Part shown: positions 1 through 2,254 of the stretch, in pieces | Position numbering within the stretch: position 1 is the stretch's first letter | Layout of the letters: the number at the start of each line of letters is the position of its first letter | Source of the DNA: a virus | Taxonomy: Duplodnaviria > Heunggongvirae > Uroviricota > Caudoviricetes | Strand: one strand, 5' to 3' | Virus record (IMG/VR): IMGVR_UViG_2541047431_000036 | DNA length: 4,036 nucleotides | The notes under the pieces: model-generated | What the model was told of the DNA's origin: nothing | Seen by the model: the letters and a program-made list of their open reading frames with translations, nothing else | Databases searched by the model: none | Program-made: the position numbers and the translations under genes

Positions 1-84
1 TTATAATATAATTACCTATATTAGCTCTGACCTGACAGTTACCGGTTATTTATACAGGTATCTGTCAGATTACATCTAACCAAC

Positions 85-111
85 AAAAAACCGGAGCCGG
101 ACTCCGGTTTT
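85..111 (-). terminator. Rho-independent terminator closing the tail fibre transcription unit (hairpin flanked by A and T runs, potentially bidirectional)
   Basis: Plus strand 91-107 is ccggag-ccgga-ctccgg, a 6-bp stem with a 5-nt loop. It is flanked by A6 at 85-90 (a U run 3' of the hairpin on the minus transcript) and TTTT at 108-111 (a U run on the plus transcript). It begins about 20 nt past the stop of the small ORF. Confidence 0.6.
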
Positions 112-125
112 GTGAAGCTGTCGGG

Positions 126-395
126 TTACTTCATCCCGCCAATATTTTCCCACGTCCCGTCAGCACGCAGAATTTGCAGCGGTCTTACCACGCACTGTAT
201 CTGCTTTTTATCCGCATCCAGTATCACCACCTGCGTGATTACCCTGTCCTGCTCCGGAATAATACCATTCTCATCGGACTCCAGGATGTCTGCCGGCCCC
301 AGTCGCAGTTGTGCTGTAAGCGACTGCACGTGTTCACGGCCATCATGCTTTCCGCAACCACACAGACGCTGCATAAGTTTTTTTAGTATATTCAT
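126..395 (-). CDS. Hypothetical small protein (89 aa) immediately downstream of the tail fibre gene; function not recognised
   Basis: ATG at 395-393 is preceded by a good Shine-Dalgarno (GGAGA, plus 401-405) at 5-nt spacing, and lies 2 nt after the tail fibre stop. It reads MNILKKLMQRLCGCGKHDGREH...LRADGTWENIGGMK, with stop at 126-128 followed by a terminator. The ORF tool's 102-aa version starts at ATG 434 inside the fibre gene without an obvious RBS; I prefer the 395 start. I do not recognise the family, and it does not resemble lambda Tfa. Confidence 0.5.
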   Translation of the reverse strand: MNILKKLMQRLCGCGKHDGREHVQSLTAQLRLGPADILESDENGIIPEQDRVITQVVILDADKKQIQCVVRPLQILRADGTWENIGGMK

Positions 396-396
396 G

Positions 397-1589
397 TCAT
401 TCTCCTGTTCTGCCTGTATCACTGCCCACTTCATTCAGCCCCTTAACATCCTGCCACGGCCCGTCACCAAACCTGACCTGCAAATGCCGAAACAGCCCCT
501 GAACCTGTGTGGCATCTTTGGGGTCAAGAAAGGTCAGTCCGGTGATGAGCGCACCATCTGTATCCGGGAACCAGCCATTGCTGTTTGTCTCAATAATGTT
601 TCCCGGCCCCAGACGGAACCGTATTTGCGTCTCCCCCGGGTCGCCCTTCGGCCCCTGAGGTCCGGTTGCCCCCACCGGGCCAGCCGCACCTGTTTCTCCT
701 TTCGGTCCCTGTGGGCCTGCCGGGCCTGCCGCACCGGTATCTCCCTTTGGACCCTGTGGACCTGCATTTCCCGTCAGACCGGTCTCTCCCCGCCCTCCCC
801 TGTCACCTTTCGGCCCCTGCGGGCCTGCCGGACCAGCATCACCTGCCGGTCCCCGTTCGCCGGTTGCCCCTGCCGGGCCGGTGTCTCCACGCTCTCCTTT
901 ATCTCCCTTCGGCCCCTGAGGACCCGCGGGCCCCGGTTCCCCCTTTGGCCCGGGAGGCCCCACCACGGTGGGGATTCGGTTTACGGCTTCTTCCGCCGCT
1001 ATCCTGCTTTGTTCCGCTGACTGTGCGCTTTCTGCTGACTCCCGGGCTTTTTCTGCTGCGGTCGTTGCATCCCTGACTGCTTTGCAGCGGCTGCACTTTC
1101 TGCCGCCTGCCGGGCTGACTCCGATGCATCCCCTGCTGAAGTGTCAGCATTTGCCGCGCTCTCTTCTGCCTGACTGGCTGATATGCCGGCATTCCTCGCG
1201 GACGTCTCCGCCTCTCCGGCATTCTTCTTCGCCTCCTCAGCGTGACGCGCCGCTTCTTCCACCATCAGTTCAAGACGGCGCAGTGCCTCCGGCCGGACGT
1301 CATCCTCCGACATGGCACCGAGAAAATCATTCAGCGTCCCCGGTTGAGAATCTTCATACACGGCGATGGTCCCGGCATGTGACGGCGGGAACCCTTCCAC
1401 CAACAGAATAACGCTGTACTGACCGTACTCAACGTCCATGCTGTAACGACCGGCTTCATCCGGATTTTCAGAGGCCACCGTGTTCACCACCACCGTGGCG
1501 CTGTTACGTCTGGCTTTCAGTTGAATGGTGCAGTTCTCTACCGGTTTTCCTGTGCCGTCTTTCAGTACACCTGAAATCTTTACTGCCAT
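397..1589 (-). pseudogene. stf: Side tail fibre protein: lambda Stf-like N-terminal domain, Ala/Ser/Glu-rich segment, collagen-like Gly-X-Y repeat (37 triplets) and short C-terminal domain; frame broken once as sequenced
   Basis: From the ATG at 1589-1587 the ORF reads MAVKISGVLKDGTGKPVENCTIQLKARRNSATVVVNTV...DEAGRYSMDVEYGQYSVIL...PPSHAGTI.VYEDSQPGTLNDF..., nearly identical to the lambda Stf N-terminus as I recall it. The ORF tool's start at GTG 1595 adds two codons (VN) that I judge not to be part of the protein. This frame stops at 999 after an implausible Q/K/P-rich tail, while the frame opening at 1144 reads ...[36 protein letters not shown] then [19 protein letters not shown]... to the stop at 397-399. 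The frames join at the C3 run 1071-1073 (GGG on the coding strand): adding one G gives ...[16 protein letters not shown]... as a continuous read. Confidence 0.82.
628..960 (-). repeat. Collagen-like Gly-X-Y coding repeat (37 consecutive triplets) within the tail fibre gene
   Basis: The translation is strictly periodic: [27 protein letters not shown] ... [12 protein letters not shown]. The nucleotides show matching degenerate 9-nt periodicity with recurring ggcccctg(a/c)gg and cgggcctgccgg motifs. This is the source of the proline-rich spurious plus-strand ORFs. Confidence 0.9.
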
Positions 1590-1599
1590 ATTCACCCCA

Positions 1600-1627
1600 C
1601 AAAAAAGCCCGCCTGAACCGGCGGGCT
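1600..1627 (-). terminator. Rho-independent terminator after lom
   Basis: Plus strand 1606-1627 is agcccgcc-tgaacc-ggcgggct, an 8-bp GC-rich stem with a 6-nt loop; the plus-strand A6 run 1601-1606 becomes a U run 3' of the hairpin on the minus-strand transcript. It lies between the lom stop (1654) and the stf start (1589). Confidence 0.65.
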
Positions 1628-1653
1628 GTCATAACACTGTGTTACCTGGCTAA

Positions 1654-2254
1654 TCAGAACTTATAACCGACACCCACGATGAAACCGTCAGTGCGCCAGT
1701 CGCCACTGCCGGAGCCTTCATAAGCAATATCAATGGCCACGGATTCGGTCGGGTTAAACTGCACGCCAGCCCCCCACGCCAGAGACGTGTTGCTGTGGCG
1801 ACCGTCATCACTTCCGGTCAGCACATCGTGCGTTTTCCCCTTGTTGTCAGTTACGCGAAGATAATCCCCCGGAGAAAGTCGACACACGGCTGTAAGCCAC
1901 ACCCGCCATCGCATACGCGCTGAACCATTCATTCACGCGCACAGACGGCCCCGCCATTACGCTGAACCAGCGGTTACGAACGGAATCTTCATGCCAGCGG
2001 GTATCGCTGTAACGGGTCAGCTGGCGATTCCTGTCTCCTGCATAGCTGAATGACGTCACCATCCCCAGTGTGTCCGTAAATTCATAACGGTATTTCACGT
2101 TAATCCCGTTAAGATTATCGCTACCGGGAGCGCTCGTCCGGGCATGAAGATACCCCGCGCTCAGCGTGGCCTGCTGCTCAGACGCCCATGCAGGCGCGCC
2201 GGATACGGCCAGACAGATGGCTGCGGACAAAATGGCGGCATAAAGTTTACGCAT
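1654..2254 (-). pseudogene. lom: Lom / Ail-PagC-OmpX family outer-membrane beta-barrel protein (lambda Lom homologue); frame broken once as sequenced
   Basis: ATG at 2254-2252 is preceded by GAGAGG. The N-terminal ORF (MRKLYAAILSAAICLAVSGAPAWA...) has a signal peptide and the Lom-like motifs INVKYRYE and SAYAMAGVA. The C-terminal ORF in another frame ends ...IAYEGSGSGDWRTDGFIVGVGYKF, identical to the lambda Lom C-terminus as I recall it. The frames join at the C5 run 1866-1870 (G5 on the coding strand): removing one G gives VSTFSG-DYLRVTDNK as a continuous read. Stop TGA at 1654-1656. Confidence 0.88.

Follow-up and report, generated by a model that had tools for sequence, protein, structure and literature searches.

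Pfam places the PF06820 domain (Phage_fiber_C, hereafter PfC) at the C-terminus of a collagen-repeat tail fiber. This small, all-beta domain terminates the collagen-like side tail fibers of lambdoid phages of EHEC type and of Stx phages. In its isolated form this fiber domain is a trimer that nucleates and refolds the collagen triple helix, and a fragment comprising collagen and PfC refolds instantly after heating (Ghosh et al. 2012, PMC3368898). The full-length recombinant fiber ECs2717 trimerises correctly in laboratory E. coli without the small gene that is the subject of the present analysis (PMC3368898). A gene of the same family, ORF68, was included when the late genes of phage Sp5 were deleted singly by Mondal et al. 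(2016, PMC5155283), who found it to be non-essential, as Sp5 lacking ORF68 still gives plaques and lysogens. The same authors looked for a frameshift signal without finding one, and their suggestion was that the gene is an “intragenomic reservoir” of fiber variation (PMC5155283).

In GenBank, the gene is named atfT in the Stx1 phage AU6Stx1, with a predicted slippery sequence, a pseudoknot and a +1 frameshift, whereas it is labelled “alternate tail fiber tip” in AU5Stx1 and “tail fiber assembly chaperone” in lambda h434 imm21. A literature search with the locus tags, the accession and the name atfT returned nothing beyond Ghosh 2012, Mondal 2016, and a preprint on the cryo-EM and proteomics of the phi24B virion. 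The small protein goes unmentioned in the text of the phi24B preprint, and the supplement of PMC12502783 contains no peptides of it.

The small gene and its surroundings

The window, that is, the whole 4,036-nt stretch of viral DNA analysed (IMG/VR record IMGVR_UViG_2541047431_000036), carries all of its genes on the minus strand: the gene of the tail-tip protein J, of which the C-terminal two thirds are present, lom, a collagen-like side tail fiber gene, and a small ORF. Its bases 1-1000 match a prophage in E. coli O157 strain 272 at 99.9% identity, in which the annotated products are gpJ, Ail/Lom, a 437-aa “prophage tail fiber N-terminal domain-containing protein”, and the 89-aa protein WP_001023455, with the convergent effector genes tccP/espFU and espJ located downstream. 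The arrangement shared by the window and strain 272 is presumably that of prophage Sp14/CP-933U. The fiber is the counterpart of ECs2717, the EPclA protein of Ghosh et al. (PMC3368898), and its gene is broken in the window by a 121-bp deletion at about position 1072 relative to the intact 437-aa gene of strain 272. The structural genes neighbouring the small gene are broken in the window, and the small gene is intact. The features of the locus are as follows:

87..111, strand not assigned: terminator hairpin closing the unit of fiber gene and small gene (terminator scan)
126..395, minus strand: small gene, 89 aa plus stop (ORF list, Pfam, PHROG, DNA identity)
126..128, minus strand: stop codon of the small gene (read 128..126)
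129..314, minus strand: PfC (Phage_fiber_C) domain of the small protein, residues 28-89 (Pfam)
315..395, minus strand: N-terminal extension of 27 residues without a fiber counterpart
345..362, minus strand: CGCGKH, residues 12-17 of the small protein
393..395, minus strand: ATG of the small gene (read 395..393)
397..399, minus strand: fiber stop TGA, read from the sequence and kept in 87/87 copies
402..406, minus strand: Shine-Dalgarno (SD) AGGAG, inside the last fiber codons and six bases 5' of the ATG at 395
397..1595, minus strand: collagen-like side tail fiber gene of EPclA type, with PfN, coiled coil, collagen and PfC (Pfam phage_tail_N, Collagen, Phage_fiber_C)
433..624, minus strand: fiber PfC domain (Pfam PF06820, E=7e-35, residues 115-178 of a 189-aa fragment)

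Exactly one base, C396, lies between the TGA of the fiber gene and the ATG of the small gene, and the small ORF occupies the +1 frame relative to the fiber gene. This TGA-C-ATG is a probable translational-coupling junction. The initial annotation had reported an 89-aa ORF directly after the fiber gene with a strong ribosome-binding site (RBS), a CGCGKH motif near the N-terminus and a terminator behind it, and all of these elements are present. The 89-aa gene is real, but the coordinates 126..434 assigned to it belong to a maximal ORF of 102 aa whose first ATG is inside the fiber gene, and the gene itself spans 126..395 on the minus strand. The 89-aa start is the one used by RefSeq, and the PHROG 576 profile likewise has 89 positions.

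The terminator-like hairpin, read from 111 to 87, consists of 11 pairs followed by TTGTTGG and is flanked by an A-run and a T-run. Because the A-run is on one side and the T-run on the other, the hairpin could work bidirectionally, and the layout suggests that it may also serve the convergent tccP/espFU, which ends just outside the window. In nearly all copies it immediately follows the ORF. Positions 1..1700 contained no promoter-like site, and the Rfam search of the whole window gave no match. The GC content of the small gene (0.50-0.53) compares with 0.54 for the fiber PfC and J and 0.33 for espJ; the GC3 of the small gene is also like that of the fiber PfC and J, unlike that of the low-GC effector cargo.

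Domain content, conservation and distribution

The small protein reads MNILKKLMQRLCGCGKHDGREH...GGMK (89 aa). An example of its peptides is LGPADILESDENGIIPEQDR. It matches Pfam PF06820 with 123.3 bits (E=5e-36) over profile positions 1-64 of 64, the cut-off of the family being 25 bits, and the PfC domain makes up two thirds of its length. The match to PHROG 576 covers residues 1-89 of 89 (E=6e-60), the protein is identical to RefSeq WP_001023455, a “phage tail fiber C-terminal domain-containing protein”, and the CDS annotated in strain 272 is 100% identical to the small gene at the DNA level. The gene family is already catalogued, and the present work re-identifies a known gene. Compared with the PfC of the fiber encoded immediately upstream, the domain is 39% identical over 62 residues (E=6e-14); in the alignments both copies have the motifs RLGP, NG, IT, LD, LQ, and DG.W, and residues G44, I53, L73, Q74, D79, G80, and W82 are invariant across the two paralogues. 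At the DNA level, the coding regions of the two PfC domains agree at 55% of positions, and no exact match between them is longer than 10 nt. Collagen repeats are absent from the small protein, which stands alone at 89 aa. On these similarities, it can be assigned to the PF06820 domain family without the collagen-fiber architecture, and is a free-standing, diverged paralogue of the fiber's own end domain.

The 27-residue N-terminal extension is composed, in order, of an amphipathic helix (residues 3-12) predicted at low confidence from the AlphaFold2 (AF2) secondary structure, the CGCGKH motif and a linker. It is kept among 33 protein alleles, and LCGCGK is retained in the Citrobacter rodentium copy. 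The AF2 monomer model, built from an alignment of 11 sequences, was poor (pLDDT 53.6) and gives docking on the fiber no structural support; a PDB sequence search gave nothing relevant, the best match being optineurin (E=0.82). A reading of the protein as a lipoprotein or as carrying a signal peptide was rejected by eye, its Cys residues having no hydrophobic core before them; neither a signal peptide nor a lipobox is visible in the sequence. The NCBIfam scan assigned the small protein to no family, and the PADLOC defence scan gave no match. Its position is that of lambda tfa, as the initial annotation had noted, and it is much shorter, with no match to a Tfa-type family in Pfam at E<=1 or in NCBIfam.

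Conservation was assessed across 84 loci, which yielded 87 copies and came from IMG/VR viral contigs, strain 272, VT1-Sakai, and E. albertii. All 87 are intact and exactly 89 codons long, representing 58 nucleotide alleles and 33 protein alleles, and all 87 have the TGA-C-ATG junction. The 40 bases 5' of the ATG are the same AGGAG-containing fiber end in 84/87 copies, barring single-base variants. The small gene as a whole gave a pN/pS of 0.13, its PfC region 0.09 and its N-terminal region 0.28, compared with 0.27 for the PfC of the fiber at the same loci, although the loci were chosen and ranked by protein similarity, which biases pN downward. This bias is limited because nearly all of the phage copies are at least 92% identical, and hence not much diversity was left out. 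The small gene is kept intact under purifying selection. The observed signal far exceeds what a chance ORF would give, because the domain match reaches 123 bits against a cut-off of 25 and 87/87 copies are intact.

Matches to the small protein were found in 296 of 50,697 phage genomes. Fiber-type PfC domains were also found in 296 phage genomes with the same organism counts, at about two PfC places per record. By name, these carriers are Stx-converting or other Escherichia and enterobacterial phages, both long- and short-tailed, and the module is found in plaque-forming phages such as lambda h434 imm21, 2B8, and Stx sipho- and podoviruses. The host-range hybrid lambda h434 imm21 carries J, lom, the 437-aa fiber gene, and the small gene, followed by NleB/NleC/NleH genes. 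Among 5,426 complete E. coli genomes, the ORF with its terminator was present in 698, at 6,678 places, with a median of 10 and a maximum of 15 copies. Outside E. coli it was found only in E. albertii and C. rodentium, the C. rodentium copy being shortened to 78 aa and lying in a prophage remnant with NleG and lifA as neighbours; the genome-collection scan also gave a 725-bp contig assigned to Xanthomonas pisi, which was taken as contamination. A profile search of 1.84 billion representatives returned 97 matches, nearly all of them E. coli fragments, and no further divergent phage loci emerged when the C. rodentium homologue served as the query. Beyond the terminator, 23 unrelated downstream contexts were observed, such as NleG genes, and about 17 loci have part of a second copy 0.7-1 kb downstream, among NleG genes. 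Because the terminator is conserved and is then followed by 23 unrelated downstream groups, the conserved part of the tail module ends with the small gene and its terminator, after which variable effector cargo begins.

These results bear on several suggestions of the initial annotation. The ORF had been called unrecognised, which does not hold given its full-length PF06820 domain, 39% identical to the fiber's own end domain. The idea of a truncated remnant conflicts with the 87/87 intact copies and the pN/pS of 0.13, and that of a small cargo gene with the structural-like GC content, the lack of a promoter of its own in the scan and the fact that the gene stays with the fiber while the downstream cargo changes. 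That the ORF might be the out-of-frame tail of a longer fiber gene in relatives is contradicted by TGA-C-ATG in 87/87 copies and by the annotation of two genes in RefSeq. Checks of conservation and synteny were proposed as well, and every related E. coli prophage examined carries the small gene; its junction with the fiber gene is conserved in 84-87 of 87 loci, and the number of phage genomes matched is 296 for the small protein and 296 for the fiber-type PfC.

Possible roles of the small protein

The small gene is predicted to be translated separately, from its own conserved start codon and RBS abutting the fiber stop. Our preferred reading, held with moderate confidence, is that its product is a separate, late, probably trimeric “knob without a shaft” and a dispensable accessory to the fiber. 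The protein would be made late together with the fiber through coupled translation, would form a homotrimer of about 30 kDa, and would act on or alongside the fiber; its likeliest form may be a partner docking on the fiber tip or a second binding surface. Any such role is presumably dispensable on K-12 because deletion of Sp5 ORF68 is listed as non-essential, and an obligatory Tfa-like folding role is not favoured. A further version, which is tentative and rather unlikely, is that of a trans-acting second knob that docks coaxially on the distal end of the fiber, or is joined to it by rare recoding, and provides a second receptor specificity. In the docking variant, the N-terminal helix and the Cys motif of the small protein would pair with the conserved 12-residue tail of the fiber. 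If so, the second specificity would matter on O-antigen-bearing natural hosts and not on K-12, which would explain why a gene that is dispensable in the laboratory is nevertheless universally conserved.

An assembly chaperone of another family that does the work of lambda Tfa or T4 gp38 would fit the place of the gene directly 3' of the fiber gene, its probable coupled translation, the label “tail fiber assembly chaperone” in lambda h434 imm21, and the ability of PfC domains to nucleate trimer formation (PMC3368898). However, trimers of ECs2717 with a collagen helix form without the small gene, the fiber PfC suffices for refolding (PMC3368898), Sp5 ORF68 is non-essential (PMC5155283), and no Tfa-family match was found. 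An essential assembly chaperone is highly improbable on this evidence, and an obligatory role of this kind is already largely refuted; of the earlier proposal of a fiber chaperone of another family, only a non-essential form survives, given that ECs2717 trimerises and Sp5 is viable without the gene. That the gene is a duplicate in decay, or cargo (a moron) with no connection to the fiber, is extremely improbable. The gene does lie at the border with effector cargo, persists in C. rodentium prophage remnants next to NleG and lifA, and is intact here while the neighbouring structural genes are broken, but decay is at odds with the intact copies under purifying selection (87/87), and a cargo gene with the absence of a promoter-like site, a GC content like that of structural genes, no defence-system match, no visible signal peptide or lipobox, and the co-occurrence with a PfC fiber in the surveyed phage genomes. 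That the DNA matters rather than the protein, as a spare end-domain cassette or as a homology block for cargo swaps, was proposed for Sp5 ORF68 by Mondal et al. (PMC5155283). Such a reservoir or recombination anchor is consistent with the approximately 10 near-identical copies per EHEC genome, the 23 different downstream contexts, the partial second copies 0.7-1 kb downstream among NleG genes in about 17 loci, and two chimeras, P0063, in which collagen is fused at GPA to the PfC of the small ORF, and P0179, which combines the N-terminal half of the small ORF with a C-terminal half of fiber-type PfC. It is nonetheless decidedly unlikely, since the PfC regions, at 55% DNA identity and a longest run of 10 nt, are too dissimilar to recombine homologously, each chimera occurs only once or almost so, alongside equally odd CII, J, and Lom fusions, and a silent cassette would not retain the ATG, the SD, the 27-residue extension and a pN/pS of 0.13. 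A homology-block role in cargo exchange between prophages is plausible as a side effect, and leaves the selection at the protein level unexplained.

Recoding would instead produce an alternate fiber tip: some ribosomes would shift +1 at the end of the fiber gene and read into the small ORF, giving a longer fiber that carries either two tandem PfC knobs or another knob at its distal end. In favour of this, the ORF of the small protein occupies the +1 frame, the junction is closely preceded by an SD-like AGGAG, and the fiber stop is UGA-C, UGA followed by C being the weakest termination context in E. coli. Third-position diversity is 0.009 in the last 13 fiber codons, compared with 0.05-0.15 in most other blocks, and the distant relative P0230, with four tandem PfC-like repeats, indicates that tandem knobs are structurally possible. 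The AU6Stx1 record with its predicted slippery sequence and pseudoknot, and the “alternate tail fiber tip” of AU5Stx1, point the same way. Against this, the final sense codon is GAA, for which re-pairing with the +1 codon AAU is impossible, and the SD-like element overlaps that GAA codon, whereas in the prfB rule it lies 3 nt upstream. The last 13 codons have no homopolymer or known shifty codon, and the +1 frame of this allele is open across these 13 codons only, as this frame meets a stop 13 codons before the ATG, both here and in 14/87 others. The RNA fold of the junction is unremarkable, with an MFE of -27.3 kcal/mol compared with an average of -28.4 for shuffled sequences (z = 0.34). None of the 87 copies has lost the ATG, which is optimally spaced from the SD, and Mondal et al. 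found no frameshift signal (PMC5155283). Taken together, a frameshifted fiber tip is very unlikely. A fusion by stop-codon readthrough was rejected, as the 0 frame continues for only 17 codons after the TGA and ends short of the PfC domain.

The Stx phages and lambdoid prophages found here to carry the collagen-like fiber and its small companion are the elements by which Shiga toxin and type III effectors pass between EHEC, EPEC, E. albertii, and C. rodentium, and sequenced E. coli genomes contain several thousand copies of the small gene. If the separate small knob modifies the specificity of the fiber, this would have consequences for the range of strains able to acquire toxin phages.

Comparison with known systems

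The closest described relatives are Sp5 (VT2-Sakai) ORF68, 933W L0122, and PHROG 576, which belong to the same family, with a length of 89 aa and 92-100% identity. As in the present locus, ORF68 and L0122 directly follow a collagen-like fiber gene, and they carry the MNILKKLMQRLCGCGKH extension ahead of their PfC. Sp5 is a short-tailed Stx2 phage, whereas the present copy resides in a long-tailed lambda-like prophage (Sp14/CP-933U type) with tccP and espJ nearby, and its J, lom, and fiber genes are disrupted; otherwise, nothing essential differs from Sp5 ORF68.

The PfC of the EPclA/EPclB fibers (PF06820; Ghosh et al. 2012) is of the same fold family, and the small protein, like it, has the domain at full length, together with RLGP and the LQ..DG.W core. 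The fiber PfC is a proven trimerisation module; the small protein is 39% identical to it but has no collagen shaft, has a 27-residue N-terminal extension of its own, and lacks the 12-residue C-terminal tail of the fiber.

With lambda Tfa, Mu U, and T4 gp38 the small gene shares its position, a probable co-expression with the fiber and a possible role at the fiber tip. Unlike them, however, it shows no sequence relationship to these proteins, is half their size, is homologous to the end domain of the fiber itself, and was not required for fiber trimerisation or phage viability in published tests (PMC3368898, PMC5155283).

The junction resembles +1 frameshift sites of the prfB type in its UGA-C stop, the SD-like element upstream and the downstream ORF in the +1 frame, and differs from them in having a P-site codon unable to re-pair, an incorrectly spaced SD, and no visible stimulatory structure.

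Disrupted tail genes beside an intact small gene

Comparison with the intact prophage of strain 272 (E. coli O157) showed that the tail genes of the window carry four disruptions, as follows:

~1072, 121-bp deletion in the coiled-coil part of the fiber gene
1866, single-base insertion (C) in lom
2368, single-base insertion (A) in J
3553, single-base insertion (T) in J

The deletion splits the fiber gene into 999..1595 and 397..966. These four differences from strain 272 would therefore mean either that the tail genes are truly broken or that the sequence contains insertion errors. Despite its disrupted neighbors, the small gene, encoding a stand-alone Phage_fiber_C (PfC) protein, is 100% identical to the strain 272 reference. 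Near its start lies a run of seven A residues (378..384, codons 4-6, L-K-K), a predicted slippage-prone tract that is interrupted in some alleles (K5R).

Terminators and transcription units

Hairpins from the terminator scan include the following:

87..111, terminator hairpin bordered by an A-run and, on the opposite side, a T-run
1606..1627 (-), strong terminator-like hairpin between lom and the fiber start

According to the neighboring annotation, tccP/espFU is convergent and its stop codon immediately precedes the window (stretch 1..86 before the hairpin), and the hairpin at 87..111 probably closes both transcription units, that of the small gene and that of tccP/espFU. The hairpin at 1606..1627 comprises eight pairs, seven of them G-C, followed by TTTTTTG. 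The fiber and small genes may form a separate unit of their own, as judged from this arrangement; a putative promoter has been reported by Ghosh et al. (PMC3368898) upstream of ECs2717, the counterpart of the fiber gene.

Copies of the small gene in other loci, phages, and hosts

Partial duplicates of the small gene were observed 0.7-1 kb 3' of the intact copy, amid NleG-type effector genes, in two collected loci and in approximately 15 further ones:

L003, 4975..5096, partial second copy
L040, 5043..5137, partial second copy

They span either nt 130-251 (~93% identity) or nt 167-269 (~81%) of the small gene, and resemble scars left here when cargo was inserted or exchanged. In Citrobacter rodentium (L096-L099), the small-gene copy encodes 78 aa and is located in a prophage remnant, adjoining NleG, an IpaB_EvcA-family gene, and lifA/lymphostatin, while the fiber gene 5' of it has only the N-terminal and PfC domains, without collagen. 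A 93% identical copy is encoded on a 725-bp contig of a Xanthomonas pisi assembly (L084, NZ_JPLE01000138.1), almost certainly as contamination by E. coli or phage DNA. The same collagen fiber and small gene are also present in lambda h434 imm21 (L100, OM418627), a laboratory host-range hybrid phage, where type III effector genes (NleB, NleC, and NleH-like) come next; the record notes of OM418627 place these effector genes in the 434-derived region.

Chimeric and tandem PfC proteins

Two rare natural chimeras were found among the related proteins. In P0063, the PfC of the small gene is joined directly to collagen repeats at a GPA microhomology, and P0179 combines an N-terminal half from the small protein with the C-terminal half of a fiber-type PfC. 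A distant relative, P0230 (565 aa), contains four PfC-like repeats in tandem (...ILRVRQADGTWKEIPAIKG...), followed by collagen repeats, which suggests that the PfC domain is a member of a wider class of fiber modules stackable in series.
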